Of a stretch of DNA of 40,793 bases, positions 11,900-34,321 are shown piece after piece. The stretch's first letter is position 1, and each line of letters begins with the position of its first letter. Under the pieces are notes generated by a model that made no database searches, had not been told where the DNA came from, and saw nothing but the letters and a program-made list of their open reading frames with translations. The translations under genes were made by a program, and so were the position numbers. The DNA is taken from positions 1 to 40,793 of the forward strand of contig CAZCHA010000003.1 in NCBI GenBank assembly GCA_964498175.1, given 5' to 3'. The stretch is from an uncultured bacterium (GTDB taxonomy: Bacteria; Fidelibacterota; Marinisomatia; Marinisomatales; UBA1611).

Positions 11900-11909
11900 G
11901 AAAAATACA

Positions 11910-13184: not shown

Positions 13185-13204
13185 TTCAATAATATATTTA
13201 TAGC

Positions 13205-17200: not shown

Positions 17201-17607
17201 TTTTCTACTTTTGGATAAGCATCCGGGTGACTATTGGGTTTCACCGGAACTTCAGCACAAATAAACGGCCCAAACTCATACCCATATCCCAAACCTTCCC
17301 AAATAATATCTGTGATTCGATTACCGGGCCTAGATATAGAACCATAATTCCAAATCTCGGATGTAATCTTATTCCCTGTGATAATTGCATATTGGCGGCG
17401 TAAAATCTGTTCATCCTCCTCTAAAATGCGGGCACGATTTCTTTCTGTCCAACGATAATACCGCTCAAACTTCGACTGACTCCATTCTTTCTTAGGGCCA
17501 TCTTTGAAATCTTTATCTAATAGAAATGGAAAAGCTGCATTGGTTAGATTACCAAAGATTAGAGCCACTCCAATCAAAAAACTTAGATGTAGATTTTTTG
17601 GACTCAT
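14227..17607 (-). CDS. Large (1126 aa) exported protein of unknown function: acidic Ca-binding-like repeats, Fn3-like segment, variant CTD-like C-terminus
   Basis: Signal peptide. An Asp/Asn-rich block DGLDNDNDGMTDESRNNNEDDDNDWDVENDDIGIDGVPNTGDCGEGDGVPT (nt 16378..16545) resembles thrombospondin-type-3 or dockerin Ca sites. An Fn3-like segment reads YVIYRSTDPQF...YYYTVVSYDHGD. The C-terminus VVPNPYVV...ISIYTVSGDHV...GVYIYHV...RFAVIK resembles a T9SS CTD with an insertion. It has 4-nt overlaps with both neighbours. Confidence 0.7.
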   Translation of the reverse strand: MSPKNLHLSFLIGVALIFGNLTNAAFPFLLDKDFKDGPKKEWSQSKFERYYRWTERNRARILEEDEQILRRQYAIITGNKITSEIWNYGSISRPGNRITDIIWEGLGYGYEFGPFICAEVPVKPNSHPDAYPKVENGDTTWFARVISDGLVTDPERSPDGSEYWTWEPLSHSDNGIYFADPNSEKIPTSSDIDRDFDGKPDSWAEDWYNPNLKDYVWPGDLRQGASNADEEAFFVCDDRRNKEFEYYPFPDDSSRKGLGLQIEYRYYQWANPLAEDIIFLIYKVTNKSEKDLHEVIFGMWGDPHIGGPSDWSDDLSYFDHELNMVYCWDEDGSASGSARNPGFFGYKFLESPGNPYDGLDNDNDGMTDESRNNNEDDDNDWDVENDDIGIDGVPNTGDCGEGDGVPTAPIDCNKQYDIRAPGEPNYEWTDLDEADMVGLTGFSSPSFSGTTIAADDRVFNDFLQPGVFDSANATQAGDYVFIYNSGPIDLPAGETRRFSIALLVGEDHDDLTLNAITAQDIYERNYQFAKPPEKPIITAVPGDEQVTLFWDNKAEESIDPISDQYDFEGYVIYRSTDPQFLDQQTITDDFGTKFLFEPLKMVNGAPARFDLENDYYGLSSVVYSGRGTHYNLGDNTGLVHSFIDSNNVINGQTYYYTVVSYDHGDVDLQIPPTECSKTITVNPETNELILDVNTRRVIPRSPSTGYVPGSINGFIAHPSGVSTATVHLEIVGPDEVENDNMFQLTFKESPTRYSLRDLTPIEEKITIRLDQFVGLLKENIVSESVHVIDENETEYIQGTDYEILNDIGKIRGIPSGTMSDGQIYTISYTYFPFIESEHVNSEQLNPIFDGINITVQDVELALDQSSTGWSSSSRSNWIGDVIPFNGADQFMYPGDYEIRFFDEIADTSSSALHPSFGYSRMNFQVWDVTVGRELAQEEVTIIEEGESDSLWTPGDRAIIMEGDPLRPKWEFTFFQPEFGDTISPENGDVFFIGTHRPFATSDTMTFSTVASNYNSNKAHDELKNISVVPNPYVVTNVLEQLDLQNPQDRGSRKIYFNHLPMQCTISIYTVSGDHVQTLNHDTEMNNGQEHWDLTTKDNFPLAFGVYIYHVNAPGVGEKIGRFAVIK

Positions 17608-20417
17608 AAGTTAATGCTCCAACCTATAGTCACTAATCTTGGCGGGCTATAATAATCCGGTCGGTTATGATATTCATCCCAAGTATGTACACCCGGTTCT
17701 CCATAATGACTTTTAAATGCTTCTGTCTCTTGGAGTGAACGATTTACATAAGTATAACCGGATCGACCAGTATCGGTATAAACATATTTTTCATTTCGAG
17801 TATCAAACACATTATAAACTTTTATGAATAATTCAAATTCCAGTTTGGCCATAGAAATTACTTTATAATACCTCATATCCAGTGACTTTTGAACTGGTTT
17901 CCGTGAACTGTTCGGGTAAGGGACATAATTTGCATTTGGAATATTTGGAGTATAAGGCCAGCCAGTACTCAATTTTCCGATAAAGCTGAGCCCCCATCCT
18001 TTTGGACCCGGTTCAGTAATTGTGATGGTAGAATTGAATACATGACTTTGATCCCATGACAAAGAAACAATTTTCTTTTCTTCCTCTTCACCTGTCAATG
18101 CATTGAAAAAGAAAGACCCACTATTTGTACTATTTCCTTCAGTAGTTTGGTAAGAATAATCTAGAAAAGCAGACAATCTCGATATAGGATCCCATCTTTT
18201 TGTTAAGCTGAAGGTAATCCCTTTCACCATGGCATAATCTTTATTTAAATAAATTGCATAGTCGGATGGACCATATACAGGGGAATTATAATGGATCGAT
18301 TGCAGTGCTAAAAGATTCCGAATATCCTTATAAAAAATACTGCTATTGATTGCCAAATGGCGACTCAATAGCTGCTGTAACCCAAATTCATACATTACGG
18401 TCTTTTCGGGTTTTAAATTACCATACCCAATACTCGGTGAAAGTCCTGCACCGAAAATACTTGTGAGAAATAATTTCCTAAGTGTGGGCATTTGATAAAA
18501 ATGACCGTATGAAAAATGTAAAATACCTTCATCCGTAATGGGGAATGCCACACCGATTCTGGGTGACCACATTGTTTTTTTCTTACTTTCCGATTCATCT
18601 CCTTCTGGGTCAATCAAATCATTGATATGCTTGGTATTTGGTTCGAATGTATCATAACGAATTCCTGCATTCATGATAAAACTCTCATATTCCAGTTTAT
18701 CCTGTAAATAAGAAGAATAAAAAGTCGCATTCTCAGTATAATAATTATGGGAAGGTGAACCATTTTCAGTAGGGATGGTTGGTATCTTATAGGTGTTCCC
18801 ATCAAATAACACAGAAAAGTTTCTTTCATTCAAATTATCATTTCTAAATTGAATGCCGGCTTTGACTTCATGGCGGGTAGTAATCTGCGATGTAATATCA
18901 AATTTACCACCTAGAGATTCAGAGTCTCTATAAGAATGTCCTCGATTAGATCCTCCAAAGGAGAATGTGGCTGAACTAGGGCTCCCTCTTATATTAATAG
19001 TTGAAGCATAATTTGAGTTAGGGAGAATATAAATATAACTGTCAACTATGGTTATTTCCTGATCCCCAATTGTATAAACACCAGGAGTATTTATTAATAA
19101 TGCCATATCTTCATCATCTCCGAATCCTGAACCACTTGTAAATGGAATAGCACTTTCCAAGCTGATAGGCGAGAACTGAAATGCCTTATAATCTGTTTTA
19201 TTTATAAAAATATGCCCTTCATAAAATGTTTTACTCCCTAAAGCTTGGTTTATTTTCAGAGAAAGATTATTATTGTTAGATCGATAGGTTGATATACCAT
19301 CAGGATTATATTTATAAAAATGAGAATAAGATTGAGACTCTCCCTGGCTCCCTAAATATTGTGTCGATAATTTAAGTCTTGGGGTTATCTTATAAGTGAG
19401 TTTCACTAACTGGTTGAATGATTCACTGGGATTCATTGCAACTAGACTACTATCCCCCCCCATTTGTATATACCATGTTTCCGTTTCAAAATTGGCATAA
19501 TCTTGAACAGTATGTTCACGAATACCATAGAGATATCCTTTCTGCCCAGTAAATTTAGAACTTGAGTTAAATGTTATTTTACCTTTTGTAAAGGGGATTG
19601 GCCCACTCAAATATCCTTCCCACGTTTGACGATTCAATAAGTCATAATCATCAATATTCGTATAAAGATCCGTATCATTAGAGTATCGATCACCTGTGTA
19701 CATAGTAAAACTACCATCGTAACCCCTACCACCTTCCTTGATCTGGATATTAACAATTCCACTCATGGCATTTCCATATTCTGCATTAAAAGTACCACTT
19801 ACCACTTTTAATTCTTGTAATGCTTTGTTGGATACATTTATAGAGAGTCCATTAGTAAAAAAGGGATTTGCAACCGAAATACCATCAATAAAATACCCCA
19901 CTTCATTACTTCTCCCGCCACGTATATGCAATTCACCACCGGCACCCTGATTAACGCCAGCCTGAGCAGTAAGGACACCTAGAAAGGACTCCACCGGCAT
20001 AGCGCTAATTTCTTCTGCAGTTGTAACCTTTTGCGATGATGTTAGATCTTTGTGTATGAGTGGTCTGTCAGCAGTAACAACTACCTCTTCCCCTTCAATA
20101 ACTTCTTGGACTAATGTAAAATTCTGTATTGATGTGCGGCCTGTATTTACAATTAAATCAGTTACTTTAACGGTTGCATATCCGATATAGGATGTTTTAA
20201 GTGTATATGTTCCCGGACGAACATTAATAATAATGAATTGTCCATTTACATCTGAATCGGCCCCAATTCCTTGACCTTCAACTATAATGCTTACACCTAG
20301 TAATGGTTCGCCAGAATCTTTCTCTACTACAATACCTGATATTTTTCCACTTTCGGCAAGAATGAAGGAGCCAAAAAGTAATAATGTTAATATCCTTAAT
20401 ATTGTTTTTTTTACCAT
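17604..20417 (-). CDS. TonB-dependent outer-membrane receptor with N-terminal carboxypeptidase-regulatory-like domain
   Basis: Signal peptide. The CarboxypepD_reg-like segment is GKISGIVVEKDSGEPLLGVSIIVEG...GQFIIINVRPGTYTLKTSYIGY. Plug-domain blocks are MPVESFLGVLTAQAGV and LHIRGGRSNEVGYFIDGISV. A long beta-barrel-like C-terminal region follows. No STN or anti-sigma signalling extension is visible, and there is no SusD-like neighbour. Confidence 0.85.
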   Translation of the reverse strand: MVKKTILRILTLLLFGSFILAESGKISGIVVEKDSGEPLLGVSIIVEGQGIGADSDVNGQFIIINVRPGTYTLKTSYIGYATVKVTDLIVNTGRTSIQNFTLVQEVIEGEEVVVTADRPLIHKDLTSSQKVTTAEEISAMPVESFLGVLTAQAGVNQGAGGELHIRGGRSNEVGYFIDGISVANPFFTNGLSINVSNKALQELKVVSGTFNAEYGNAMSGIVNIQIKEGGRGYDGSFTMYTGDRYSNDTDLYTNIDDYDLLNRQTWEGYLSGPIPFTKGKITFNSSSKFTGQKGYLYGIREHTVQDYANFETETWYIQMGGDSSLVAMNPSESFNQLVKLTYKITPRLKLSTQYLGSQGESQSYSHFYKYNPDGISTYRSNNNNLSLKINQALGSKTFYEGHIFINKTDYKAFQFSPISLESAIPFTSGSGFGDDEDMALLINTPGVYTIGDQEITIVDSYIYILPNSNYASTINIRGSPSSATFSFGGSNRGHSYRDSESLGGKFDITSQITTRHEVKAGIQFRNDNLNERNFSVLFDGNTYKIPTIPTENGSPSHNYYTENATFYSSYLQDKLEYESFIMNAGIRYDTFEPNTKHINDLIDPEGDESESKKKTMWSPRIGVAFPITDEGILHFSYGHFYQMPTLRKLFLTSIFGAGLSPSIGYGNLKPEKTVMYEFGLQQLLSRHLAINSSIFYKDIRNLLALQSIHYNSPVYGPSDYAIYLNKDYAMVKGITFSLTKRWDPISRLSAFLDYSYQTTEGNSTNSGSFFFNALTGEEEEKKIVSLSWDQSHVFNSTITITEPGPKGWGLSFIGKLSTGWPYTPNIPNANYVPYPNSSRKPVQKSLDMRYYKVISMAKLEFELFIKVYNVFDTRNEKYVYTDTGRSGYTYVNRSLQETEAFKSHYGEPGVHTWDEYHNRPDYYSPPRLVTIGWSINL

Positions 20418-20710
20418 GCCATAAATTTTATTGTTTACCTAGGATTTCCAGTTTGAATTGAAAAGAAATCTATATTAGAACCCACTGTTTTTTCAACTTT
20501 AATGTAATATTTGTTCCATTATTAGAATCTATCCTTTCTCACGAACCATAAGTTTAACAAAAGAGGGAAAATATCAATAGAGTTTTCTCTCTTAAAAATA
20601 AAAATTGAATAATGCATAACCATTTCCAGTAGTTAAACCTTAATTTTGAGAATGAAAATGGGTGTATTCCCTTGAGCTAAAATATTATTCGTAAAATTTA
20701 TAGATTCCAC

Positions 20711-21364
20711 ATGCTAAATAAGTCTCTCATGGTGATAGATCCTTCTGTCTATCAGCCGGAAATATCATCCTTTAATCATATAAATTCCCTAACGGGCATT
20801 AGCTGTACGTACCATCTTCCGGCTCTTACGAATGAAAAAAGTATTGATGATGAATTAGTTAATTCATGCGGAATTATCCTCATGGGCAGCGCTTCATCAG
20901 TTCATGATAAATCTGAATGGCAAAAAAGGCTATCCGATAATATGGTTAGAGCAATCGATTTGGAAATTCCAGTTTTAGGAATTTGTTATGGACACCAACT
21001 CATCGCTCACTTGTTTGGAGGGGCTGTGGATTTCTTATGGAACAGACAAAAGATGCTGGGCATCCGAAATGTTCATATCCAGGAAACTGAATTATGGGGT
21101 GAACCAATATCTGGGCCACTCATATTTTCTCATAAAGAAGGTGTGACCACTTGTCCTAAAGATTTTTCTATTATTGCGTCCAGTGATGATGTGGAGATCG
21201 AAGGAATTGCACATAACTCAAAACCGATATGGTCTTTCCAACCCCATATCGAAGCTACGTATCATTTTGCAAAGAGAGTAAAAATATCAAATGATGATTT
21301 CAAAAAAGCATTCCGGTTTGGGATCCAATTGTTAAATAAATTTATCCACCATCTAGACAATTAA
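20711..21364 (+). CDS. Class I glutamine-amidotransferase-like (GATase1 / peptidase C26-like) stand-alone protein
   Basis: The nucleophile elbow is PVLGICYGHQLIA and the His-Glu pair lies in FQPHIEAT. It is 217 aa, has no synthase partner domain and no signal peptide. Confidence 0.65.
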   Translation: MLNKSLMVIDPSVYQPEISSFNHINSLTGISCTYHLPALTNEKSIDDELVNSCGIILMGSASSVHDKSEWQKRLSDNMVRAIDLEIPVLGICYGHQLIAHLFGGAVDFLWNRQKMLGIRNVHIQETELWGEPISGPLIFSHKEGVTTCPKDFSIIASSDDVEIEGIAHNSKPIWSFQPHIEATYHFAKRVKISNDDFKKAFRFGIQLLNKFIHHLDN

Positions 21365-21368
21365 TTAA

Positions 21369-22769
21369 ATGACATTTTATAAAACCACTTTTTCAATCAT
21401 TCTTTTTTGGATTATTGCCTGTGCACCGCCTAAAGTGCTACTCGATAATCCCGGAATTCCAACCTTGAAAAAAGAGATTAATACTCTTATAGTAGATTCT
21501 AATCTTGATATCAATATGAGTTTAAAAATGACATCTCTCACTTCAGGGAAAACGTTGTATGCTCTCAATAGCCATAAAAAACTCATACCAGCCAGTAATA
21601 ATAAATTGTATACAAGCGCAGCCGCTTTAGTCTATTTGGGCACAGACTATACATTTGAAACGTCAATATATCAGAATCAGAAAAATATTTATCTGGTTGG
21701 CGATGGAGATCCTGACTTTTCTTTAGATAAATTGGATTCCCTAGCAGAAATTGTTTCAACGAGCATAACATCTATTGATACATTATTTGTGGATGAAAGT
21801 ATAATGGATACACTACATTACGGCGAAGGTTGGATGTGGGATGAGGGTCATTGGTGGTATGCTGCTCCAGTGAGCGCGCTTTCTTTGAATGATAATTGTG
21901 TCAAGTTTTTTGTCCAAGCCGGAAAAATGGGAGAACCAGTTACTATTCAAGCCCACCCATCAACAAACTATATACAAATAGATAATCAATCTATTACAGT
22001 AAATGACACCGTTGATTTTCAAAAGTTTAAGATTGATCGCGATTGGGCTGGCCGAACAAATCGATTTACAATCACAGGAGAAAAATTAATCAAGGCACCT
22101 GAGGATACAATCATTCGAAATATTTATCATCCCCCCCTTTTTGCTGGAACTGTATTAAGGGAAATGTTAGAAAAATATGGTACAACTGTTAAAAAGGTAG
22201 CTATTGGAAATAGTACAAAATCTTCTATTAAATTGACATCCCATATTTCAGATTCTCTTATTTACTCGGCTGAAAATCTCATGAATGAAAGTGATAATCT
22301 TACTGCAGAATTATTTATAAAAACATTGGGAGTCACAGATAGAATACCGGGAAACTGGAAGAATGGACTCAACGTTGTAAAATCTTTTTTAGCCGATACT
22401 ACAACGATTGATACAACGACCATTCGCTTGGTTGATGGATCAGGGGTTTCTAGATACAATTTAACATGTGCTGACCATTTTATAGATTTATTGACCTATA
22501 TGTATCAAAGTCCATTCAATAATGATTTTTTAAAAATACTTCCACACGGTGGTTCAGAAGGAACATTAAAAGATCGAATGAAAGTTCATGGTGATCGTAT
22601 TCGAGCCAAGACCGGCCATTTATCTGGTGTAAGTTGTTTATCAGGATACGCATTTTCTCCCACTTATGGACCTGTAGCCTTTTCTATGTTGATGAATGGG
22701 TATATTGGTTCATCCAGAGAATATCGCCAACTCCAAGACCGAATTTTAGGGCTGTTGATTCATGATTAA
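21369..22769 (+). CDS. dacB: D-alanyl-D-alanine carboxypeptidase/endopeptidase, PBP4 type (peptidase S13), lipoprotein
   Basis: Lipobox (WIIACA). SxxK in LIPASNNKLYTSAAAL. SxN in VDGSGVSRYN. KTG in AKTGHLSGVSCLSGY. The length and the insertion domain between SxxK and SxN are typical of PBP4. Confidence 0.85.
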   Translation: MTFYKTTFSIILFWIIACAPPKVLLDNPGIPTLKKEINTLIVDSNLDINMSLKMTSLTSGKTLYALNSHKKLIPASNNKLYTSAAALVYLGTDYTFETSIYQNQKNIYLVGDGDPDFSLDKLDSLAEIVSTSITSIDTLFVDESIMDTLHYGEGWMWDEGHWWYAAPVSALSLNDNCVKFFVQAGKMGEPVTIQAHPSTNYIQIDNQSITVNDTVDFQKFKIDRDWAGRTNRFTITGEKLIKAPEDTIIRNIYHPPLFAGTVLREMLEKYGTTVKKVAIGNSTKSSIKLTSHISDSLIYSAENLMNESDNLTAELFIKTLGVTDRIPGNWKNGLNVVKSFLADTTTIDTTTIRLVDGSGVSRYNLTCADHFIDLLTYMYQSPFNNDFLKILPHGGSEGTLKDRMKVHGDRIRAKTGHLSGVSCLSGYAFSPTYGPVAFSMLMNGYIGSSREYRQLQDRILGLLIHD

Positions 22770-23691
22770 ACCACCTGCTCTAAAACCAAATGCCACTATC
22801 GGCATTTTGAGTCCATCTTCATGGATGAATGAGTCAGATTTGAAATTGGCCATAGCTATATTTGAACAAAAGGGCTACCATCTTGTTTTGGGCGAAAGTG
22901 TATTTTTGAAAGATCATACATTTGCAGGCATGCCAGAACAAAGAGCCAAGGATATTAATGGCATGTTTGCCAATCCAAATATTGATGCTATTATTTGTGC
23001 TCGTGGAGGATATGGCGCTAATCGCGTTTTACCTTTACTCGATTATGATTTAATTAAAGCGAATCCGAAAATATTTATGGGGTATAGCGACGTGACAGCA
23101 TTTCTTACATCCATCACACAAAAAACCGGACTTGTTACCTTTCATGGTCCCATGTTGTCTAGCTTTAAAAAGGGTATGGTGGATTATAATTTTGATTTAA
23201 TAGAAAAAACTTTATTCGGCTATGAATCTATAACAATTCAATCACCACATGAATTACAACACCGTGTTTTAAAATCCGGAAAAGCTGTAGGCCCCCTTTG
23301 GGGCGGGAATATGTGTTTATTGGTTAATCGATTAGGAACAGCAGATCAACTCAATACGAATGGTACTATTCTATTTATTGAGGATATTGATGAATATTTA
23401 TATGCATTCGACCGCATGTTGGTCCACATGAAAGAAGCGGGAATGTTTCAAAATATTACTGGATTAATTATTGGAGAACTGGTGGATATGAAAGATCAAG
23501 ATATACCTTTCGGAAAATCAACGGATGAAATAGTCATGGATGTTTGTAGCGATTTGGATATTCCGATTATTTCCAATTTTCCCTGTGGACACGGTGTTTT
23601 TCAATCCACTTTGCCCATTTCCATCCCAGTTCAATTGGATGCAAAATTCAATTCATCAACATTAACATTATTGGATTCACCCGTAAAGTAA
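22762..23691 (+). CDS. ldcA: LD-carboxypeptidase (peptidase S66, muramoyl-tetrapeptide carboxypeptidase LdcA-like)
   Basis: Blocks are IGILSPSS, ARGGYGANR, the nucleophile block MGYSDVTAF, FIEDIDEYLY and FPCGHG (Ser-Glu-His triad context). No signal peptide. It overlaps dacB by 8 nt. Confidence 0.8.
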   Translation: MIKPPALKPNATIGILSPSSWMNESDLKLAIAIFEQKGYHLVLGESVFLKDHTFAGMPEQRAKDINGMFANPNIDAIICARGGYGANRVLPLLDYDLIKANPKIFMGYSDVTAFLTSITQKTGLVTFHGPMLSSFKKGMVDYNFDLIEKTLFGYESITIQSPHELQHRVLKSGKAVGPLWGGNMCLLVNRLGTADQLNTNGTILFIEDIDEYLYAFDRMLVHMKEAGMFQNITGLIIGELVDMKDQDIPFGKSTDEIVMDVCSDLDIPIISNFPCGHGVFQSTLPISIPVQLDAKFNSSTLTLLDSPVK

Positions 23692-23700
23692 GGAAATGAT

Positions 23701-24297
23701 ATGTTGAATTATATTTGGTTTGGAATGATGTTTATTGGCGTTGTCGTCGGTGCATTCACAGGGAACATTGATGCGGTAACAGAAGCGGCTATTGATATGG
23801 CAAAAGTAGCAGTAAATCTAGCAATTGGACTCATCGGAATTATGGCTCTCTGGCTAGGCATCATGAAAATAGCGGAAGAATCTGGACTGATTCGTGTCAT
23901 TGCCAAAGGTTTACGTCCTATAACGATTCGTCTTTTTCCTGACGTTCCGGAAGATCACCCTGCGATTGGGTCCATCGTATTAAATATGGCAGCCAATATA
24001 TTAGGATTGGGAAATGCGGCTACGCCGCTTGGGCTTAAAGCCATGGAAGAACTCCAAGAATTAAACCCGAACAAAGAAACAGCCACCAATGCCATGTGTA
24101 CCTTTTTGGCAATCAATACATCCAGCGTACAGTTAATTCTTCCAGCCACTGTGGTAGCACTCATGGGCACCCATTCCAGTCAGATATTTATTACAACTAT
24201 TGTGGCAACCGGAATGTCTACGATTGCTGCAATAGTTGCAGTAAAGTTTTTAGAAAAGCAGAAACGATTTTCTATTACTGAAGAGCGTCAATCATGA
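23701..24297 (+). CDS. spmA: Nucleoside-recognition (Gate) domain membrane protein, SpmA-like
   Basis: 198 aa and polytopic. MLNYIWFGMMFIG...AKVAVNLAIGLIG...NILGLGNAATPLGLKAM matches the SpmA pattern. AAGGAA lies upstream of the ATG. Confidence 0.7.
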   Translation: MLNYIWFGMMFIGVVVGAFTGNIDAVTEAAIDMAKVAVNLAIGLIGIMALWLGIMKIAEESGLIRVIAKGLRPITIRLFPDVPEDHPAIGSIVLNMAANILGLGNAATPLGLKAMEELQELNPNKETATNAMCTFLAINTSSVQLILPATVVALMGTHSSQIFITTIVATGMSTIAAIVAVKFLEKQKRFSITEERQS

Positions 24298-24842
24298 TAA
24301 ACTTATTTGTCAGTGGTGTGAATGAATTCTCAAAATACATTATTCCATTTCTATTGGTGGGCATCCCATTTTATGGATTGGTTTTCAAAAAAGTAAAAGT
24401 ATATGAAACTTTCGTAGAAGGTGCAAAGGATGGTTTTACTATTTCCGTCAGAATTATCCCATATCTTGTGGCAATACTTGTTGCTATTGGCATGTTTCGT
24501 GCTTCCGGCGCCCTGGATTTATTGCTTAATTTCCTTTCACCTGTTTTAACTCTAATCGGATTTCCGCCAGAGAATCTTCCTTTAGCGCTTATGCGGCCAT
24601 TATCCGGTAGCGGGTCTTTGGGATTATTAACCGATTTGGTCAATATCCATGGTCCTGACTCTCTTATTGCTAAAATTGGTGCCACCATGTTTGGTTCCAC
24701 AGAAACTACATTTTATGTATTGGCTGTTTATTTTGGATCGGTAGGGATTCGCAAGACACGTCATGCGTTGGTAGCAGGATTATTTGCTGATGCAGTAGGT
24801 GTTTTGAGTGCCGTTTACATATGTCAATTCTTCTTTGGCTAA
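24294..24842 (+). CDS. spmB: Nucleoside-recognition (Gate) domain membrane protein, SpmB-like
   Basis: 182 aa and polytopic. Blocks are FVEGAKDGF, MRPLSGSGSLG and MFGSTETTFYVLAVYFG. It overlaps the spmA-like gene by 4 nt. Confidence 0.7.
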   Translation: MINLFVSGVNEFSKYIIPFLLVGIPFYGLVFKKVKVYETFVEGAKDGFTISVRIIPYLVAILVAIGMFRASGALDLLLNFLSPVLTLIGFPPENLPLALMRPLSGSGSLGLLTDLVNIHGPDSLIAKIGATMFGSTETTFYVLAVYFGSVGIRKTRHALVAGLFADAVGVLSAVYICQFFFG

Positions 24843-24886
24843 ATGAATAGGCATCAAGGTCGCTAAGAATCACGAAGATAATATAT

Positions 24887-25561
24887 ATGATTAGAGTTCT
24901 AAGTTTCTTAGTTATCATCGCTTGTTGGGGATGTGGCAATTCTGGTTCAATCGTTTCAAAAGAAACAATCTCCAAACATGATTTAGTGGATATACAAGAA
25001 ATGGATTCAACTCTTTTGGTAGAACTAAAATATTCCACCACTGATAATTTTATGAAAACGGATGTCTATGGTGATTTAGAAATATGTTACATGCGAAGAG
25101 TTTCTGCTGAAATGCTTGGGAAGGCTCATTCCATTTTAAAAGAGGCCCATCCTGATCTTCGATTGTTAATTTATGATGGACTTCGCCCCCGTTCGATCCA
25201 ATGGATCCTTTGGAACACTTTAAGCGATGTTCCGGAATCAGAAAGGTCTAATTTCGTGGCGAATCCCAGATCGGGGTCGATTCATAATTTTGGTGCTGCG
25301 GTTGATCTTACAGTTGCTCATAAAAATGGGACACCGCTAGATATGGGAACTCACTACGATTATTTCGGTGATTTGGCATTCCCAAGACTGGAAGATTCTT
25401 TGAAAGTGGTTGGAGATTTAACACTAGAACAGGTTCATAACCGTCTTATTTTAAGAGATGCCATGACCCAGGCTGGATTTAGCCCTATCACCACAGAATG
25501 GTGGCATTTTGATTCATTCCCCTATAAAGAGACGAAACAGAAATTCACAATAATAGAATAA
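24887..25561 (+). CDS. D-alanyl-D-alanine dipeptidase (VanX/DdpX type, peptidase M15D) with lipoprotein signal
   Basis: IYDGLRPRSIQ, the zinc-site block SGSIHNFGAAVDLT, and EWWHFD are VanX-family hallmarks. The N-terminus MIRVLSFLVIIACWGCG looks like a signal peptide with a lipobox. Confidence 0.8.
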   Translation: MIRVLSFLVIIACWGCGNSGSIVSKETISKHDLVDIQEMDSTLLVELKYSTTDNFMKTDVYGDLEICYMRRVSAEMLGKAHSILKEAHPDLRLLIYDGLRPRSIQWILWNTLSDVPESERSNFVANPRSGSIHNFGAAVDLTVAHKNGTPLDMGTHYDYFGDLAFPRLEDSLKVVGDLTLEQVHNRLILRDAMTQAGFSPITTEWWHFDSFPYKETKQKFTIIE

Positions 25562-25644
25562 ATGAAGAATCGTCATTATAATAAATTGATTCCTGTTATA
25601 GCAACTTCTCCAACGACTTAGAAGACCCTACTAAATAATTCATA

Positions 25645-27021
25645 ATGACCGAATATAAAAGAGACTTGGGACTGAAGGAGTCCGTTGCAATAGTATTAAG
25701 CCGAATCATTGGTTCGGGGATTTTTCGAACACCGGCACCCATCATGGCTTTGGTGGGATGTACCTCCCTGTTCGGATTGGTTTGGGTCATTGGCGGGATC
25801 ATTACAATCTTTGGTGCGGTTATTTACGCTGAACTCACAGCTATGCTTCCCAAATCCGGAGGTCCCTACGTTTTCCTGAAAGAGGCCTATGGTCCATACA
25901 TCGCATTCCTTCGTGGATGGGCAATGTTCTTTGTATCAGAGACAGCATCTATTGTTGCCGTTGCTTTGGTTTTTACCGAATACCTGAATGCCATTTGGGA
26001 AATAACAATGGGAACACAATTTAATCTTTTTGTCACATTTGCAATTTCTTTAGTGACAATCTGGGGATTAACGGGCATCAATTTGTTTGGTGTCAGTATA
26101 AGTGGAAAATTTCAGGTTATTTTCAGCACGATAAAGGTTGGTGCTGTAGGCGCAATTATAGGAATGACGCTCACATCATTTTCTACTGGAAATGTAGGTA
26201 ATTTTACAAATCCTCTTTGGCCTGAATCCTTCGGTTGGGAGACTGTTCTTGCTGTTGGCGCAGCATTACGTTATTCATTTTTTGCTTTCAGCGGATGGGA
26301 AGGGGCCACCTACATGGCTGAAGAGGTAAAGGATCCGCAAAGGACACTTCCTTTATCACTTTTTTTTGGGATTGGTGGTGTAACCTTACTTTATATTGGA
26401 ACCAATCTTGGATATTTATACCAACTTAATGTACAAGAAATTATTGAGAATAAATGGGTTGCCACCGCTGCTATGAAAGTTGTTCTCGGTGCTACTGGTG
26501 GTGTACTCATTTCTGTAGCTGTTGCTATTAATGCATTTGGAAATATTAGCACCCAAATTCTTTGTAAAGGCAGAACCTGGCATGCTATGGCGCGAGATGG
26601 TCTCTTTTTCGATAAATTTAAGGTATTACACCCTGTATTTAAATCGCCTAATAATGCCCTAATTGGTCAAGGGATTTGGGCAACCATATTGCTATTCTTT
26701 TCTGTGGTGGCAACCTATTTACAATCGGGTGTCAGTGGTTCTAATGCCTATGAGATTATGATTGATTTTTTTTCCGCAACCAGCACTATTTTCAATTTAT
26801 TGACTTTTGGGGCAATCTATGTTTTACGAAAAAAATGGCCTCAAAAGGATCGGCCTTATAAAGCACTCATGTATCCCTGGAGTATGATTATTGTTTTAAT
26901 TCTATATTCTTCATTTTTGGTTATCACCTTGATTACTGCATTCATTCCATCTTTGGTTGGGTTGGCCCTCACCTTCAGTGGCACTTTTTACTATTTGAAA
27001 AAAGTAAAAAATAAATCATGA
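25645..27021 (+). CDS. APC-superfamily amino-acid permease
   Basis: 458 aa with about 12 hydrophobic spans. The N-terminal IIGSGIFRTP signature, a FAFSGWEG block and general APC/LAT-like organisation. Confidence 0.8.
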   Translation: MTEYKRDLGLKESVAIVLSRIIGSGIFRTPAPIMALVGCTSLFGLVWVIGGIITIFGAVIYAELTAMLPKSGGPYVFLKEAYGPYIAFLRGWAMFFVSETASIVAVALVFTEYLNAIWEITMGTQFNLFVTFAISLVTIWGLTGINLFGVSISGKFQVIFSTIKVGAVGAIIGMTLTSFSTGNVGNFTNPLWPESFGWETVLAVGAALRYSFFAFSGWEGATYMAEEVKDPQRTLPLSLFFGIGGVTLLYIGTNLGYLYQLNVQEIIENKWVATAAMKVVLGATGGVLISVAVAINAFGNISTQILCKGRTWHAMARDGLFFDKFKVLHPVFKSPNNALIGQGIWATILLFFSVVATYLQSGVSGSNAYEIMIDFFSATSTIFNLLTFGAIYVLRKKWPQKDRPYKALMYPWSMIIVLILYSSFLVITLITAFIPSLVGLALTFSGTFYYLKKVKNKS

Positions 27022-28112
27022 ACAAGATCACATTTGTTATCCTTCCACTTTTGTCTATGGTCGTAGTTTTTACTTCTTGTGGAGAAAAAGATTTAGGGTC
27101 ACCTATTACTGAAGTGGACTCTGGAATTATTGATTCGCTTTTATCGGATTATGATTTGGTAGAAGGTCCAGGCGCTGCAGTTATGATCATTAAAGATGGA
27201 GATATTTTATTTTCTAAAGGATATGGATTGGCCAATTTGGAAGAGGGAATTTCCAATACAAATGAAACCAATTTCAGGTTGGCATCCATTACAAAACAAT
27301 TCACGGCAATGTGCATTATGATATTAATAAATCATGGTGAATTAGATTTTGAATCGACTTTGACAGATATTTTTTCAGCTTTCCCTCCTTATGGGAATAA
27401 TATAACCATTCGCCAAATGTTAAATCACACATCAGGACTGATGGATTACGAATCATTGATTCCTGATGATGCCTCAGAACAAGTGTCTGACTGGGACATA
27501 TACACCATGATGTTAGGCCTAAATTCAACCTATTTTACACCGGGAACACATTATCGCTACAGCAATACGGGCTACGCTTTATTAGCCATGATCGTTGAAG
27601 AAAAATCTGGACTCATTTTTTCGGAATTTTTAGAGAAAAATATTTTTTCACCCTTGGAGATGAATAATAGCGTTGCCCACCAAGAAGGAATCTCAAATAT
27701 CACAAACCGTGCTTATGGTTATTCTCAGGGAGATGATGGGTATAATCTGGATGATCAAAGTTTAACCAGCGCCGTATTGGGAGATGGCGGCATATATACA
27801 TCATTAAACGATATGTTCCGTTGGGATCAAAGTTTGTATACAGATAGCCTTGTTCCTTATGAAATATTAAATGAAGCATTTACTTCCGGAGAGTTATCCA
27901 ATGGTGAAAAAACAGGTTATGGATTTGGTTGGCGAATTGATTCTTATTTTTATCGGGACCGAGTTCATCATACAGGAAGCACACGTGGGTTTCGAAATGT
28001 GTTCATGCGATTTCCAGACCAACACATTAGTATTCTAATTCTCACAAACAGAAACTCTGGAAGTCCAATCAATATCGCAGAAAAAATTGCCGATTATCTT
28101 TTTGACGCTTAA
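27018..28112 (+). CDS. Beta-lactamase-fold serine hydrolase (class C / DD-peptidase-like family), lipoprotein
   Basis: Lipobox (VFTSCG). SxxK in LASITKQFTA. YxN in YSNTGYALL. A KTG-equivalent HTG in HHTGSTRGF. It overlaps the permease gene by 4 nt. Confidence 0.75.
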   Translation: MNKITFVILPLLSMVVVFTSCGEKDLGSPITEVDSGIIDSLLSDYDLVEGPGAAVMIIKDGDILFSKGYGLANLEEGISNTNETNFRLASITKQFTAMCIMILINHGELDFESTLTDIFSAFPPYGNNITIRQMLNHTSGLMDYESLIPDDASEQVSDWDIYTMMLGLNSTYFTPGTHYRYSNTGYALLAMIVEEKSGLIFSEFLEKNIFSPLEMNNSVAHQEGISNITNRAYGYSQGDDGYNLDDQSLTSAVLGDGGIYTSLNDMFRWDQSLYTDSLVPYEILNEAFTSGELSNGEKTGYGFGWRIDSYFYRDRVHHTGSTRGFRNVFMRFPDQHISILILTNRNSGSPINIAEKIADYLFDA

Positions 28113-28221
28113 CTAAATTCGATTCATGATCCAACTTTTACCCATTCTAATTTCTTCTCTTTTCCAATACTGCAGACAGATTTTGGTAAGAATCGGGAAA
28201 ATTTAATCATTCTATTATCAT

Positions 28222-29487
28222 TTAATATTCTAGTTTAAATCGATTCAAATCAGGGACGTAATCTTTTTCTCTAAATAATTCAAATTCGTAAATGACTCTC
28301 CCCAACTCTGATAAAAAAGGAATTGTTAATGAGTCATAATCATAGGTATTATCATTAATTATTCCATTTTTATTTCCGTAAACGACTGCGCTTAAGAAAA
28401 ATTCCACATTATTATCAAAATCTACTATATAGGCATTATCAATAAGAAAACCGTATGCAAGCCCTACTTTATTGAATGACCTAATACTGGGTGGAATTGT
28501 AGCATGATTATCCCCAAAAAGAAAAAATTTGCAATAACTATCATAATATTTTTGCCGATCGTAAACCGGTTTATTACTTTCTCGAGGTAATATGGACATA
28601 CATTTAAATAAATAATTTTTATCTCGTTCAGTCAGATTCATTTTTCTATTTTCAAATACCTCAGGAAAAATTGTATGAATCAAGAAAGTGTGCTTATCTT
28701 TCAAACTCATGTAGTTTTTCTTTGAAAATTCGAATGGTTTGGGAATCACTTCATCACCAACTCTATGAGATTCTCCAATAAAATAATTATCAAAGGGAGC
28801 ATCTAGGGTTAATTGACCGATCTCACTTTCCTGCTGATGAAGAATCCCATCTTGATTGAAAAATTTAATTTGGTTGGTCACCAAATTTTGTTTTTCGCTC
28901 AGTCCAATCCCAAGTCGATGACGAATTCTTGTACTCCTGTACCCAAGTTCCCAAAGCCGTTTATTGATATAATCCCTGCCAAGAAATTCATATAGTCTGT
29001 TAAAAGCATCATTATCTGATATAATGAAAAGTTTATGGATAAAATGCGCTATAGATGGATAACCAGAATGTGACGTCTCGTCCCGATTCATCCCAAGTAA
29101 ACCGATTGGATGATCTTCAATTTTCATGGGTGTATCCATATCTATTGAAGAGATGTTATTTAATTTTTCCAAAGCTAACACAGCAATCGGAAATTTTATG
29201 GCACTTGCCGGATAAAAATAGGTTCCATCTTTCATCCCAAATTGAAATGTCTCAAAAGTTGGCTCATTGAATTGATTGCGGTGTACCATGGTGTAAATTA
29301 CCTGAAACCTATAAAGTTCTGGAGCCTGAAGTATTGGTTGGAAACGGGAATTTACGTGCTTCAATATCTGTGAGAAATCGAGATTTTTCTCTTGTTCCAT
29401 TTCCATTTCATTGCCAATAACCTTGACAGAACATATGAGGGTAAATAATAAAAATAAATTGATGAATGAATTATTTTTTAATGACAT
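28222..29487 (-). CDS. Exported serine hydrolase, class A beta-lactamase-like fold
   Basis: Signal peptide. SxxK in YPASAIKFPIAVLA. SDN in FIISDNDAFN. A possible KTG-like KVG in FNKVGLAYG. Assigned by motif spacing only. Confidence 0.55.
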   Translation of the reverse strand: MSLKNNSFINLFLLFTLICSVKVIGNEMEMEQEKNLDFSQILKHVNSRFQPILQAPELYRFQVIYTMVHRNQFNEPTFETFQFGMKDGTYFYPASAIKFPIAVLALEKLNNISSIDMDTPMKIEDHPIGLLGMNRDETSHSGYPSIAHFIHKLFIISDNDAFNRLYEFLGRDYINKRLWELGYRSTRIRHRLGIGLSEKQNLVTNQIKFFNQDGILHQQESEIGQLTLDAPFDNYFIGESHRVGDEVIPKPFEFSKKNYMSLKDKHTFLIHTIFPEVFENRKMNLTERDKNYLFKCMSILPRESNKPVYDRQKYYDSYCKFFLFGDNHATIPPSIRSFNKVGLAYGFLIDNAYIVDFDNNVEFFLSAVVYGNKNGIINDNTYDYDSLTIPFLSELGRVIYEFELFREKDYVPDLNRFKLEY

Positions 29488-30871
29488 TCAGTATGCCCTG
29501 AGTCAATATTGTTACGATAATATTTGTGGTAACAGATAAGAAAATAAACCAAGTCCATGCCAAGCCTATTTGTTTGAGAAAAAATACAACTAAGAAACTG
29601 GATATCAGCCCTATAATCAAACTGATTTGAGAAAATGAGTAATCAAGCTTGCTCAATAAAAATAGGCCCAATAACCCACCATATGTAAATGATGCAATTT
29701 GAAGCCCCATAATTACAATAGCAGAATCTCCTTCATCAAATATAAGTGCAATACCAATGAGTACAGTCGCCCAAATACCACTAACAATCCGTGATTTTTT
29801 CAGATCAGCTTCACCCCTTAACCAATCCGTAATAGTGGATGAAGCCAAAGAATTGATGGATGAGCTCAGGGTAGACATTGCTGCAGACAGGATTCCTGCT
29901 AAAAGTAAACCTTTAACACCGACCGGCAAATGATCAATAATAAATGTCGGAAATTCCCTATCTTTAACCAGTTCTACTCCGCCAATGTAAATGTAGATCA
30001 AAGATCCAGCTAATAAAAAAATTCCAAATTGTAGAAAAACAAATAAGCCACTGCCGATCATAGCTTTTGTTCCGGATTCAATGTCTTTAGTCCCTAAAAC
30101 ACGTTGAACCATCATATAGTCAGCACCGTGGGATGAAAAAGACAAAAACAATCCACCAATTACCGCACTTATGAATAAATAGGGATCATGAATAAAATCA
30201 CCGCTGAAATTCAGGATCTGCAATTTCCCTGCTTCGCTCAATTGAATAAATGCATCCCCTGCTGATGGTGCCATATTAAACAGGATATAAAATATAGAAA
30301 TCAGGCCGCCGGCCAAATAAAGCACAAATTGAAAACTATCAATCCAAACGATAGTGCGGATACCTCCAAGGAGTGAATAAACCAGGGTTACAATTCCGAT
30401 CACCAATACTGCAACAGGCAATGACCATCCCGTTACAACCTGTACAATAACTGCCGTGGCAAGATATCGAATTCCATCGGCAAGAATCCGGGTAATGAGA
30501 AAAACAGCCGATGCAACTTTTTGTATCTCCGAACCAAATTTATTACCCAATACTTCATAAATGGATGTGACTCCTGATTGGAAATATTGTGGTAGTAAAA
30601 ACAGGCTTACCAAAATTCTTCCCAGGATGTAACCGATAGCTAATTGGAGGAATAACCAATTCCCGCGATAAGCAATTCCTGGAATGCTGATAAAGGTCAA
30701 TACAGATGTTTCTGTGGCTACGATGGAAAACATGGCTACAACCCATGGAATGTTTTTTCCACCAAGAAAATAATCAGAAGTGGATTTATTGAGCCTGCTC
30801 TGCCACCACCCGAATCCCATGAGTCCAATTAAAAATAAAAAAATTATTGATGTGTCTATCCAGTGTAACAT
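29471..30871 (-). CDS. Sodium:solute symporter (SSS/SSF family)
   Basis: 466 aa and polytopic. The N-terminal SDYFLGGKNIPWVVAMFSIVATETSVLTFISIPGIAY is a typical SSF opening. The downstream gene overlaps it by 17 nt. Confidence 0.8.
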   Translation of the reverse strand: MLHWIDTSIIFLFLIGLMGFGWWQSRLNKSTSDYFLGGKNIPWVVAMFSIVATETSVLTFISIPGIAYRGNWLFLQLAIGYILGRILVSLFLLPQYFQSGVTSIYEVLGNKFGSEIQKVASAVFLITRILADGIRYLATAVIVQVVTGWSLPVAVLVIGIVTLVYSLLGGIRTIVWIDSFQFVLYLAGGLISIFYILFNMAPSAGDAFIQLSEAGKLQILNFSGDFIHDPYLFISAVIGGLFLSFSSHGADYMMVQRVLGTKDIESGTKAMIGSGLFVFLQFGIFLLAGSLIYIYIGGVELVKDREFPTFIIDHLPVGVKGLLLAGILSAAMSTLSSSINSLASSTITDWLRGEADLKKSRIVSGIWATVLIGIALIFDEGDSAIVIMGLQIASFTYGGLLGLFLLSKLDYSFSQISLIIGLISSFLVVFFLKQIGLAWTWFIFLSVTTNIIVTILTQGILNVIKK

Positions 30872-30896
30872 ATTCTTATATGATTTTTTTTGGGAT

Positions 30897-33407: not shown

Positions 33408-34321
33408 TGAATGGTACCAATAATTAGTTCACCTTGAGGATATATTGTTATTGATATAAATTGGCCATCTGACGAAATAGATGGATTCATTTCAATTTGG
33501 TCATCTGTATTGGTTAATTGAGATATGGAATCAGAATCCTTATCCCATATAAAAATATCACCATCTATTAATTCATATCCATTATCTTTTAATCTCATGA
33601 ATAAAATATAATCTCCAGAAGGTGAAACGGATGGTGCATTCCCTACCCCAATTTCCTGATATTTTTCTGTTAATAGATCAAAAAAATATAGGCTACCACC
33701 ATATAGTTCGAATGAGATTAAATTAGTAGAATACGAAGTTGAAAGATTGAGAATATCCGATGGAAATTGTTTTATAAGCACAGCAGATCTAGGATTGTCT
33801 TTTTTAAATAATTTGTTCCCAATAGCATATACTATGGGGTAATTCCATTCTACATTTTTATTTTCTATCGAATAGGATTTCAATTTATTTTCAAGTAAAT
33901 AATGAAGTGAATTATTGCCAGACCAACCAACAGGTAGTATTTTTTTCATTGTAAAATCAATAATCGTATTCAGAACGACACCATTTTGATCAAGTAAAAT
34001 CAAAGAATTCATTCTTCTTTTTTGATTATATTTAGTTTTGAGAATTAACACGAACTTTCCATTTGGTGACCATTTCGCGCTAAATGCATTTAGATATCCT
34101 GTATTAAATAAAGTAGTTTCTACTGAAAGTGGATCAAAAATAAAACAACTAGACTGGTTATCATTTGATAAAAACAATTCAGTGTGGTTTGGAATCCACT
34201 CTGATCGCAAATTAGGCAGGTTCAATTCCATTTCTTCCCACTCTACAACCATATTAGTTTGGGAAAATAGTGCCACATTAAAAAACAGGTTAATTTTGAA
34301 AAACAAATTCATATTCATCAT
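33404..34321 (-). CDS. Exported TolB-like / PD40 beta-propeller repeat protein
   Basis: Signal peptide. Repeated PD40-like units are AKWSPNGKFVLIL, SVSPSGDYILFMR and MNPSISSDGQFISI. It overlaps the amidase start by 4 nt. Confidence 0.5.
   Translation of the reverse strand: MMNMNLFFKINLFFNVALFSQTNMVVEWEEMELNLPNLRSEWIPNHTELFLSNDNQSSCFIFDPLSVETTLFNTGYLNAFSAKWSPNGKFVLILKTKYNQKRRMNSLILLDQNGVVLNTIIDFTMKKILPVGWSGNNSLHYLLENKLKSYSIENKNVEWNYPIVYAIGNKLFKKDNPRSAVLIKQFPSDILNLSTSYSTNLISFELYGGSLYFFDLLTEKYQEIGVGNAPSVSPSGDYILFMRLKDNGYELIDGDIFIWDKDSDSISQLTNTDDQIEMNPSISSDGQFISITIYPQGELIIGTIQ

Follow-up and report, generated by a model that had tools for sequence, protein, structure and literature searches.

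What would a marine bacterium do with eight consecutive genes for enzymes and transporters of cell wall peptides? The question is raised by a contig from an uncultured member of the Fidelibacterota (GenBank assembly GCA_964498175.1, contig CAZCHA010000003.1, positions 1 to 40,793, analyzed over its full length and hereafter called the window). An earlier sequence-only reading had recognized in it a tightly coupled operon that would act as a "disassembly line" for the stem peptides of peptidoglycan. The genes encode, in this order, a protein with a class-I glutamine amidotransferase (GATase) fold, PBP4, LdcA, SpmA, SpmB, an M15 dipeptidase-like enzyme, an APC permease, and an S12 serine hydrolase. 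Our analysis suggested that they are probably the peptide-handling module of a peptidoglycan utilization island in marine Marinimicrobia (Fidelibacterota, SAR406).

The operon and its predicted products

The eight plus-strand open reading frames (ORFs) occupied positions 20711..28112, and their coordinates and spacings in the ORF listing (4, -8, 9, -4, 44, 83, and -4 nt) matched exactly those given by the sequence-only reading. In the junction sequence ATGATTAA, the PBP4 stop lies inside the LdcA start region, and ATGA overlaps occur at both the SpmA/SpmB and the APC/S12 junctions. Judged by this spacing, cotranscription of all eight genes is plausible. A scan of the operon for sigma-70-like promoters and for terminators revealed no more internal signals than expected from shuffled sequence and gives no evidence either way, and a Rfam scan of the whole window returned no matches. 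The divergent intergenic region upstream of the operon (Table 1) is presumed to be a shared promoter or regulatory region; its sigma-70-like signal did not exceed the shuffled expectation in a scan that does not cover FCB-type promoters. The G+C content of the window was ∼36%, and homologues of the GATase-like protein and SpmA were labeled Candidatus Marinimicrobia, Neomarinimicrobiota, or Fidelibacterota, a phylum of the FCB group.

Relatives were collected by a one-genome-per-species scan with SpmA, which yielded at least 444 relatives; the best 80 were fetched (loci are designated by L-numbers) and searched by tblastn with all window proteins. Since at least six marine metagenomes had yielded the identical locus in independent assemblies, it is no assembly artifact; the contig was present in JGI 3300009110 and 3300007504 and in the ENA SUTE22-1 assemblies. 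Moreover, the core gene order was kept in relatives with 45 to 60% protein identity and differing flanks, which is more than a chance arrangement. In one near-identical assembly (L004, ENA SUTE22-1 scaffold_2576), the PBP4 and M15 calls were truncated and the GATase and SpmB calls were missing; a truncated call was also present at the APC position. These anomalies indicate frameshifts or assembly errors in that copy.

Pfam and NCBIfam agreed with all eight family assignments of the sequence-only reading, and the catalytic residues of the five enzymes (PBP4, LdcA, M15, S12, and the GATase-like protein) were intact. PBP4 scored 243.6 bits against TIGR00666 (cut-off, 107.8) and 287.6 bits against PF02113 (2e-85), and the active-site motifs SNNK, SDN, and KTG (corresponding to SxxK, SxN, and KTG) were present in its translation; we assign it to the PBP4/peptidase S13 family, with predicted DD-endopeptidase and DD-carboxypeptidase activity. 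LdcA matched both S66 domains (PF02016, 140.6 bits; PF17676, 101.6 bits), and the positions of its Ser-Glu-His triad (GYSD, IED, and CGH) aligned with those of solved S66 enzymes. The M15 protein scored 84.7 bits against PF01427 and 53.2 bits against the VanX model (cut-off, 320), and its motifs RP, SxHxxGxAxD, and EWWH aligned with the zinc-binding and catalytic residues of VanX (1r44). The last gene product had been described as a "class-C-like" hydrolase. Its S12 fold was upheld (PF00144, 187.5 bits), but a class C beta-lactamase was ruled out by its score against the class C model (NF033085, 85.8 versus a cut-off of 415) and by D-peptidases as the nearest solved proteins (Pab87 2qmi, 7e-37; D-aminopeptidase 1ei5, 2e-27; R61 DD-peptidase, 3e-23; alkaline D-peptidase 4y7p, 5e-22). 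With the motifs SITK, YSN, and HTG (SxxK, YxN, and H/KxG) in its translation, it is best classified as a putative serine hydrolase of the D-stereospecific peptidase type; it missed the equivalog cut-off for D-aminopeptidase (145 versus 443). For the APC permease, an orthologue with 65 to 66% identity adjoined an alanine racemase gene in three gammaproteobacterial loci (L041, L070, and L072). The permease is predicted to import released amino acids, with D-Ala and L-Ala as the most likely substrates.

Compartments were called heuristically, by inspection of N-terminal segments and by hydropathy. PBP4, M15, S12, and their orthologues had a hydrophobic N-terminal segment ending in Cys: ...FWIIAC in PBP4 (...FSC/YSC in orthologues), ...VIIACWGC in M15 (LGCS, SACN, or SGCN), and ...VFTSC in S12 (...FTSC/SSCD with its orthologues). 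Hydropathy gave one N-terminal segment in each of these three proteins, none in LdcA and the GATase-like protein, and at least four transmembrane segments in SpmA and SpmB each; together with the APC permease, three products were integral membrane proteins. LdcA (window protein and 14 orthologues checked) and the GATase-like protein were devoid of signal peptides and transmembrane segments. According to this heuristic, PBP4, M15, and S12 would be exported and lipoprotein-like. LdcA and the GATase-like protein would stay in the cytoplasm, and SpmA/SpmB and the APC permease would be located in the membrane. Because of this pattern of signal peptides and transmembrane segments, the operon appears to span periplasm, membrane, and cytoplasm, with one set of enzymes for trimming in the periplasm, two transport systems in the inner membrane, and two enzymes for the final steps in the cytoplasm. 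The theme of the proposed disassembly line, peptides of the diaminopimelate (DAP) type, was strongly supported by the window content and by the neighbors found in other phyla; a single linear line was not, since three compartments are involved.

Combining homology, signal peptides, and gene context, we propose the following pathway. Glycosidases and amidases secreted by the type IX secretion system (T9SS) and encoded around the operon would fragment exogenous murein, and the adjacent TonB-dependent receptor would carry the fragments into the periplasm. There, PBP4 would cleave cross-links between D-Ala and meso-diaminopimelate (mDAP) as well as terminal D-Ala. Ends that contain D-Ala would be removed and split by the D-stereospecific S12 peptidase together with the DdpX-like M15 dipeptidase. 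The Gate-domain pair SpmA/SpmB would import the free stem peptide (tetrapeptide, tripeptide, or a fragment), and the APC permease would take up freed amino acids, chiefly D-Ala and L-Ala. In the cytoplasm, the terminal D-Ala with its L,D linkage would be taken off by LdcA. The Cys-His-Glu hydrolase of the GATase fold would then attack the gamma-D-Glu-mDAP amide, and LysA, encoded 12 kb upstream, would convert mDAP to L-lysine. The products would be used as nutrients and perhaps for building the bacterium's own wall as well.

Gene order in relatives and possible roles of SpmA/SpmB and the GATase-like protein

Co-occurrence of the gene order across genomes, which the sequence-only reading had put forward as a check, was not found for the operon as a whole. 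Among the best 80 of the at least 444 relatives, only L014 contained all eight genes, and it carries an additional second S66 gene; the full set of eight is thus a lineage-specific extension of a core that is itself conserved. In Marinimicrobia-type loci, LdcA was directly upstream of SpmA in 37 of 39 cases, PBP4-LdcA was present in 32/37, and GATase-PBP4-LdcA was present in 19/37. SpmB was found downstream of SpmA in all 43 Marinimicrobia-type and all 27 assessable gammaproteobacterial loci. M15 directly followed SpmB in 14 of 39 Marinimicrobia-type loci, and the same run contained APC in 11, S12 in 3, and a second S66 paralogue in 4 of 27. The conserved unit is [GATase]-[PBP4]-LdcA-SpmA-SpmB, and M15, APC, and S12 are variable accessories. 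Two contigs with a typical Marinimicrobia operon and flanks were filed under other names, as "Methanobacteriota archaeon NAT36" (L029, NZXM01000032.1) and "Winogradskyella sp." (L032, CAXRJK010000028.1); both are probably misbinned.

Beyond the phylum, LdcA-SpmA-SpmB was intact in 25 of 28 gammaproteobacterial loci, from Woeseiaceae, Lysobacterales, Chromatiales, and others. The neighbors there included an MR_MLE enzyme with L-Ala-D/L-Glu epimerase as its best match, a YkfC-like lipoprotein of the NlpC/P60 family with SH3b, alanine racemase, an S12/DUF3471 hydrolase, an NhaC-like carrier, a second S66 protein, a Beta-lactamase2-like hydrolase, DgcN (equivalog, 498 versus 480 bits), and LysA (equivalog). 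In L073 and L078, a class-IV aminotransferase gene was located upstream and an M14 peptidase gene directly after SpmB. These gammaproteobacterial neighbors appear to form an independent toolkit for stem peptides and D-amino acids. Clostridial loci showed the order sigma-54 activator, LysA, epimerase-like, SpmA, SpmB, LdcA, M20 peptidase, and Beta-lactamase2, with the trio arranged as SpmA-SpmB-LdcA, in contrast to LdcA-SpmA-SpmB in Gammaproteobacteria.

The enzymes thus vary between Marinimicrobia, gammaproteobacterial, and clostridial LdcA loci, and SpmAB was the only transporter common to them. Since it is the sole transporter consistently found beside LdcA, we propose SpmA and SpmB, as two halves of a split transporter, as a candidate stem-peptide permease. 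Homologues carry the JGI name "spore maturation protein A"; no sporulation genes were present among the annotated window ORFs, and the host belongs to the Fidelibacterota of the FCB group. SpmA/SpmB identity amounted to 85 to 99% across Marinimicrobia, 75 to 84% to Gammaproteobacteria, and ∼65% to Clostridia (64 to 66% for the closest Firmicutes relatives fetched). In loci L037 to L082, the 75 to 84% identity between Marinimicrobia (36% G+C) and gammaproteobacterial orders (46 to 66% G+C) was accompanied by only 50 to 59% identity of the adjacent LdcA; the high identity of SpmA/SpmB reflects either extreme constraint or ancient lateral transfer.

The second element without an established role was the stand-alone GATase-fold protein. 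PF00117 was matched with 67.5 bits and Peptidase_C26 (PF07722) with 32.5 versus 20.5 bits and only partial model coverage, and scores against GuaA models in NCBIfam were far under the cut-off. Cys92, His179, and Glu181 were invariant among 25 homologues. The AlphaFold2 model (predicted local distance difference test score [pLDDT], 94.8) had gamma-glutamyl peptidase GGP1 as its top fold match in the PDB (9k7j, TMq 0.79), with GuaA GATase subunits marginally behind. No synthase partner was found in the operon or in related operons. Homologues with at least 44% identity were Marinimicrobia genes at this operon position, and in L007 the GATase gene overlaps LdcA by 4 nt. In two independent gammaproteobacterial metagenome-assembled genomes, GATase and S66 domains were fused in a single 506-aa ORF (L055, 8456..9976; L057, 4110..5630; PF00117 at residues 48 to 189, S66 at 210 to 326, and S66C at 373 to 487; GATase part 31% identical to the window protein). 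This ORF was followed by SpmA-SpmB and preceded by an epimerase-like gene and a lipoprotein NlpC/P60 gene. By the Rosetta-stone argument, fusion in one ORF suggests that GATase and LdcA act on the same molecule. A link to peptidoglycan for the GATase family as a whole was rejected and is limited to the Marinimicrobia clade (≥44% identity) and the fused gammaproteobacterial form. A complementary distribution of GATase and NlpC/P60, M14, or M20 enzymes was also considered as evidence of a shared function and was rejected because of their co-occurrence. We tentatively favor the protein as a candidate gamma-D-Glu-mDAP amide hydrolase, an assignment somewhat more apt to prove wrong than right; a candidate alternative is deamidation of amidated stem peptides, i.e., a stem-peptide amidase. 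Just outside or inside the operon, L007 contained an NlpC/P60 gene with SH3 domains (Pfam; 5910..6695), and NlpC/P60 similarity was seen around 12103 in L026, L028, L029, and L035 by 27 to 30% tblastn similarity only.

The two proposals can be joined. SpmA/SpmB would then be a two-component permease for stem peptides or fragments of them, with uptake of murein peptides, coupled to LdcA, as its ancestral and widespread role, and the GATase-like protein would be a new cysteine gamma-D-glutamyl-meso-diaminopimelate hydrolase or stem-peptide amidase that replaces MpaA/YkfC in marine Marinimicrobia. That both parts hold together is doubtful at present.

The surrounding window and comparison with known systems

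The whole 40.8-kb window (1..40793) appears from its gene content to be a peptidoglycan utilization island, with the operon as one module (Table 1). It encodes three to four GH18 proteins, GHL10, amidases of three types, two NamZ, a TonB receptor, an SSF symporter, and LysA; five of its hydrolases are T9SS tagged. Neither a transcription regulator nor a SusD-like partner was found among the 27 ORFs of ≥120 aa scanned (for SusD, a nested 174-aa ORF at 16254..16778 within the 1126-aa gene was left out).

Table 1 Features of the window discussed in the text
Feature	Position	Strand	Remarks
Secreted GH18 with T9SS C-terminal domain	4613..5953	-	
AmiA-like (MurNAc-L-Ala amidase-like) lipoprotein	6005..6841	-	N terminus ends ...LITSC
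LysA-GH18/GH85-NamZ apparent operon	6992..11899	+	Overlaps of 32 nt and 4 nt
GH18/GH85, secreted	8217..10664	+	Por_Secre_tail
NamZ exo-muramidase	10661..11899	+	NamZ N and C domains
Amidase_2 (N-acetylmuramoyl-L-alanine amidase)	11910..13184	-	T9SS-secreted
1126-aa protein and PorV-like outer membrane protein	13205..17607	-	Codirectional with TonB receptor; weak PorV match
TonB-dependent outer membrane receptor	17604..20417	-	Plug, TonB_dep_Rec_b-barrel, CarboxypepD_reg; divergent from operon
Divergent intergenic region, 293 nt	20418..20710	.	Between TonB-dependent receptor gene (-) and first operon gene (+)
Stand-alone class-I GATase-fold hydrolase, 217 aa	20711..21364	+	PF00117, Peptidase_C26
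PBP4-type (S13) DD-carboxypeptidase/DD-endopeptidase (predicted), 466 aa	21369..22769	+	TIGR00666, PF02113
S66 LD-carboxypeptidase (LdcA-like), 309 aa	22762..23691	+	PF02016, PF17676; start overlaps PBP4 stop by 8 nt
SpmA-like Gate-domain membrane protein, 198 aa	23701..24297	+	PF07670, hydropathy
SpmB-like Gate-domain membrane protein, 182 aa	24294..24842	+	PF07670; ATGA overlap with spmA
M15 (VanX/DdpX-family) zinc D-Ala-D-Ala dipeptidase-like enzyme, 224 aa	24887..25561	+	PF01427
APC-superfamily amino acid permease, 458 aa	25645..27021	+	PF13520, 183 bits
S12 serine hydrolase, putative D-stereospecific peptidase type, 364 aa	27018..28112	+	PF00144
Beta-lactamase2-like hydrolase, SSF sodium:solute symporter, Amidase_3, PD40 protein	28222..34321	-	Convergent with operon
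GHL10 glycosidase-like	34415..37843	+	T9SS-secreted
Second NamZ exo-muramidase	37848..39119	+	

LysA scored 362.9 bits against TIGR01048 (cut-off, 297.9). Because LysA overlaps GH18 and GH18 overlaps NamZ, DAP decarboxylation is tied to glycan degradation and not to lysine biosynthesis genes. The order LysA-GH18-NamZ was also found in L047, and LysA-NamZ was found in L044, L032, L040, and L086. On the other side of the divergent region, the TonB receptor held the same position in L026, L028, L029, L031, and L081, and the trio of TonB receptor, 1126-aa protein, and PorV-like protein adjoined the operon in the genomes of several relatives. The 1126-aa protein ends with ...GRFAVIK, resembling other T9SS cargo of the window, and contains Asp-rich calcium-binding-like repeats; it had no Pfam matches, and its AlphaFold model (pLDDT, 49.5) was unusable. 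Downstream, the block consists of the Beta-lactamase2-like hydrolase and SSF symporter (28222..30871), the T9SS-secreted Amidase_3 (30897..33407), and the PD40 protein; it was kept in L026, L028, L029, and L081.

The hydrolase with the Beta-lactamase2 fold (28222..29487, minus strand) is convergent to the operon and located 4.5 kb from LdcA. Proteins of this fold accompanied S66 in Gammaproteobacteria (L059, 18530..19780; L038; L062) and Clostridia (L090, 13360..14211) and stood beside the second S66 paralogue in Marinimicrobia L068 and L080; it may be another unrecognized stem-peptide enzyme. Near the end of the window, a GH18 paralogue (39125..40209, minus strand) was broken into at least three frames, with the N-terminal half at 39700..40209 and fragments at 39332..39502 and 39125..39268 that carry the GH18 end and the T9SS C-terminal domain; it is either a pseudogene or a sequencing error. 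A 778-aa cytoplasmic protein with no Pfam matches (2275..4611, minus strand) recurred in L014, L035, L047, L052, L054, L058, and L088, next to either the AmiA-like or the SSF symporter gene.

How does this locus compare with known murein-peptide systems? The Bacillus subtilis ykfABCD operon, reportedly described by Schmidt et al. in 2001, is said to encode the LdcA-type YkfA, the L-Ala-D/L-Glu epimerase YkfB, the gamma-D-Glu-diamino-acid endopeptidase YkfC, and the ABC ATPase YkfD. Both systems have a cytoplasmic S66 carboxypeptidase at the center of a stem-peptide set with a dedicated transporter, cotranscribed there and predicted to be so here, and a full YkfA/B/C-like trio surrounds SpmAB in the gammaproteobacterial relatives. 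In contrast, the window has LdcA only, without epimerase or NlpC/P60, and the ABC system is replaced by SpmA/SpmB and APC, with the periplasmic lipoproteins PBP4, M15, and S12 and the GATase-fold enzyme in addition. The murein tripeptide pathway of Escherichia coli comprises import by MppA-Opp, LdcA, the gamma-D-Glu-DAP amidase MpaA, the epimerase YcjG, and PepD. It shares the logic of taking in the free stem peptide, removing the L,D-linked D-Ala, and splitting gamma-D-Glu-mDAP, and a gene of the MpaA family (M14) follows SpmB in L073 and L078; however, its genes are scattered, its importer is of the ABC type, it has no GATase-fold enzyme, and LysA is unlinked. E. coli ddpXABCDF and Salmonella PcgL, the latter periplasmic, provide a D-Ala-D-Ala dipeptidase for feeding on D-Ala-D-Ala. 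They resemble the M15 gene in that a VanX-family dipeptidase would serve nutrition rather than vancomycin resistance, and the location of PcgL matches that predicted for the M15 lipoprotein; they differ in having a dipeptide ABC transporter where the window has an APC permease, and the M15 protein stayed under the DdpX equivalog cut-off. The peptidoglycan salvage genes NamZ and AmiA of Tannerella forsythia gave the Pfam families NamZ and AmiA-like their names. As in these and in the polysaccharide utilization loci of Bacteroidota, a TonB-dependent receptor, secreted and periplasmic hydrolases, and inner-membrane importers are clustered here for one polymer, and NamZ and AmiA-like proteins are present; here, however, no SusD-like partner was detected, and the companions of the receptor are T9SS cargo and a PorV-like protein. 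We know of no described counterpart of the peptide-handling operon in those systems.

For 30 years, the SpmA/SpmB family has figured solely as "spore maturation proteins" cotranscribed with dacB. The two-gene Gate-domain architecture and the protein sizes here are similar to those of the B. subtilis pair. In B. subtilis dacB-spmA-spmB, the gene for a D-Ala-removing carboxypeptidase is cotranscribed with spmA-spmB (PMC8745062, PMC13188902), and the biochemical role of SpmAB in Bacillus is stated as unknown (PMC3533761). DacB, however, is an S11 DD-carboxypeptidase acting in the mother cell in cortex maturation, whereas S13 PBP4 and S66 LdcA are found here in a nonsporulating FCB bacterium and in a nutrient acquisition island. 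A further small membrane-protein gene pair with a peptidase gene is yjiH-yjiG-iadA of E. coli K-12, in which yjiH and yjiG overlap by 4 nt and are followed by the isoaspartyl dipeptidase gene (RefSeq: YjiG, "Gate family protein"; YjiH, "uncharacterized"). SpmB was distantly similar to YjiG (E = 4e-11); YjiH as a counterpart of SpmA was rejected, as BLASTP was not significant. The function of YjiG/YjiH is stated as unknown (PMC13311989).

Within the phylum, Fidelibacter multiformis IA91, the only cultured member, draws on exogenous muropeptides for its wall and for carbon and energy (PMC11652737); the muropeptide-based physiology is shared, but IA91 is an anaerobic subsurface peptidoglycan auxotroph. 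Peptidoglycan degradation by SAR406 had been predicted earlier from carbohydrate-active enzymes (CAZymes) only (PMC5596340), and this general prediction was all we found in the literature on peptidoglycan degradation by Marinimicrobia. The sequence-only reading knew of no single operon combining these activities. Operons combining murein-peptide enzymes are already described, for instance E. coli mpaA-ycjG-mppA and ddpXABCDF and B. subtilis ykfABCD and dacB-spmA-spmB, and in that respect its view has to be narrowed; no description of this operon, its exact composition, or the LdcA-SpmAB link was found in the searchable literature. The present locus would be a cluster of that kind, for uptake and catabolism of murein peptides, extended by D-Ala-trimming lipoproteins of the periplasm and lying within a T9SS/TonB peptidoglycan island.

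Competing explanations and significance

Several points weigh against the proposed pathway, in which all functions are inferred wholly from homology and context. LdcA stayed below its equivalog cut-off (PRK11253, 155.6 versus 378) and was by sequence equally close to MccF (3gjz) and to a solved LdcA (6uuk), and for these reasons its reading as LdcA rather than as an MccF-type enzyme rests on gene context. The best NCBIfam match of the M15 protein, DdpX (PRK10178), reached 126.3 bits, below the cut-off of 176. GATase homologues with at most 43% identity (L008, L009, and L010) were located in unrelated contexts, and GATase co-occurred with NlpC/P60 in L026 to L029, L035, L055, and L057, so that it need not be a gamma-D-Glu-mDAP hydrolase. 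For SpmA/SpmB, no substrate has been demonstrated in any organism (PMC3533761, PMC13311989), and the pair could instead be exporters or ion channels; moreover, there were a few exceptions to its context, since the neighbors in L084 were unrelated to peptidoglycan, and L071, L056, and L062 had no upstream LdcA. Finally, the operon together with LysA had been said to cover most bonds of a stem peptide, which was overstated: by tblastn, the window contained no established enzyme for the L-Ala-D-Glu or the gamma-D-Glu-mDAP bond and none for L-Ala-D-Glu, D-Glu, or D-Ala conversion, and NlpC/P60, M14, M20, and epimerase queries gave no matches in it.

Could the operon serve the cell's own wall instead? 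PBP4 and LdcA are classical remodeling and recycling enzymes, and most of the sampled Marinimicrobia genomes had the PBP4-LdcA-SpmAB core, which would fit a housekeeping set. We nevertheless consider it unlikely that the genes, like their counterparts in E. coli, merely recapture peptides of the cell's own wall and have no part in feeding on foreign peptidoglycan: the T9SS-tagged glycosidases and amidases and the TonB-dependent receptor around the operon point to an extracellular substrate, and Mpl, AmpG, NagZ, and AnmK were not seen among the annotated window ORFs. LysA, M15, and APC in the window, as well as Alr, DgcN, and the epimerase in relatives, point to amino acid catabolism, and several relatives have a second S66 paralogue inside the operon. 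A related possibility is salvage for wall building, in which imported muropeptides or peptides would be trimmed by LdcA to the tripeptide and reused as in F. multiformis IA91. The LdcA step is known to make a recycled peptide safe for reuse. IA91 cannot make peptidoglycan and needs exogenous muropeptides, a dependence said to be ancestral to the phylum (PMC11652737). According to the same study, however, it was anaerobic sublineages that kept this dependence, and the present contig stems from assemblies of the marine water column; furthermore, the window annotation showed neither an Mpl ligase nor a UDP-MurNAc pathway gene, and the LysA linkage and the D-Ala-D-Ala dipeptidase would destroy building blocks. 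Such salvage, although compatible with use of exogenous peptidoglycan as a nutrient, is improbable as the explanation of the locus.

A VanX-like dipeptidase, beta-lactamase folds resembling class C and class A, and a low-molecular-weight penicillin-binding protein might also suggest a cluster for antibiotic resistance or tolerance, and the Pfam names involved (Beta-lactamase, Beta-lactamase2, D-ala-D-ala dipeptidase, and PBP4) are typical of resistome screens. Given the class C and VanX scores reported above and the context, this reading was rejected as very improbable: VanH, VanA, VanR, and VanS were not present, the nearest solved relatives of S12 were D-peptidases, and the neighbors in three phyla were enzymes of amino acid and peptide catabolism. 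Hardly credible at all is a fortuitous run of independent genes sharing one strand. Internal promoters might lie in the gaps of 44 nt and 83 nt, and M15, APC, and S12 were variably present, but four junctions overlap or measure 4 to 9 nt, the order was conserved at 45 to 60% protein identity across many species-level genomes and phyla, and a gene fusion unites two of the members, GATase and LdcA. Utilization of exogenous peptidoglycan remains the probable role of the locus.

Peptidoglycan and D-amino acids make up a large, slowly turned-over share of marine organic nitrogen, and SAR406/Marinimicrobia rank with the most abundant of the uncultured lineages in dark and low-oxygen ocean waters. 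If the proposed pathway is true, a complete gene set, resolved by compartment, that begins with surface hydrolases and ends with lysine would account for the life of these cells on bacterial necromass and would tie in with the need for muropeptides in the sole cultured representative of their phylum. The main value of the locus lies in two testable predictions, concerning SpmAB and the GATase-fold enzyme: the cross-phylum LdcA-SpmA-SpmB module provides a testable hypothesis for SpmA/SpmB, and perhaps for E. coli YjiH/YjiG, and the GATase::LdcA fusion points to a candidate for a new enzyme of the gamma-D-Glu-mDAP step.

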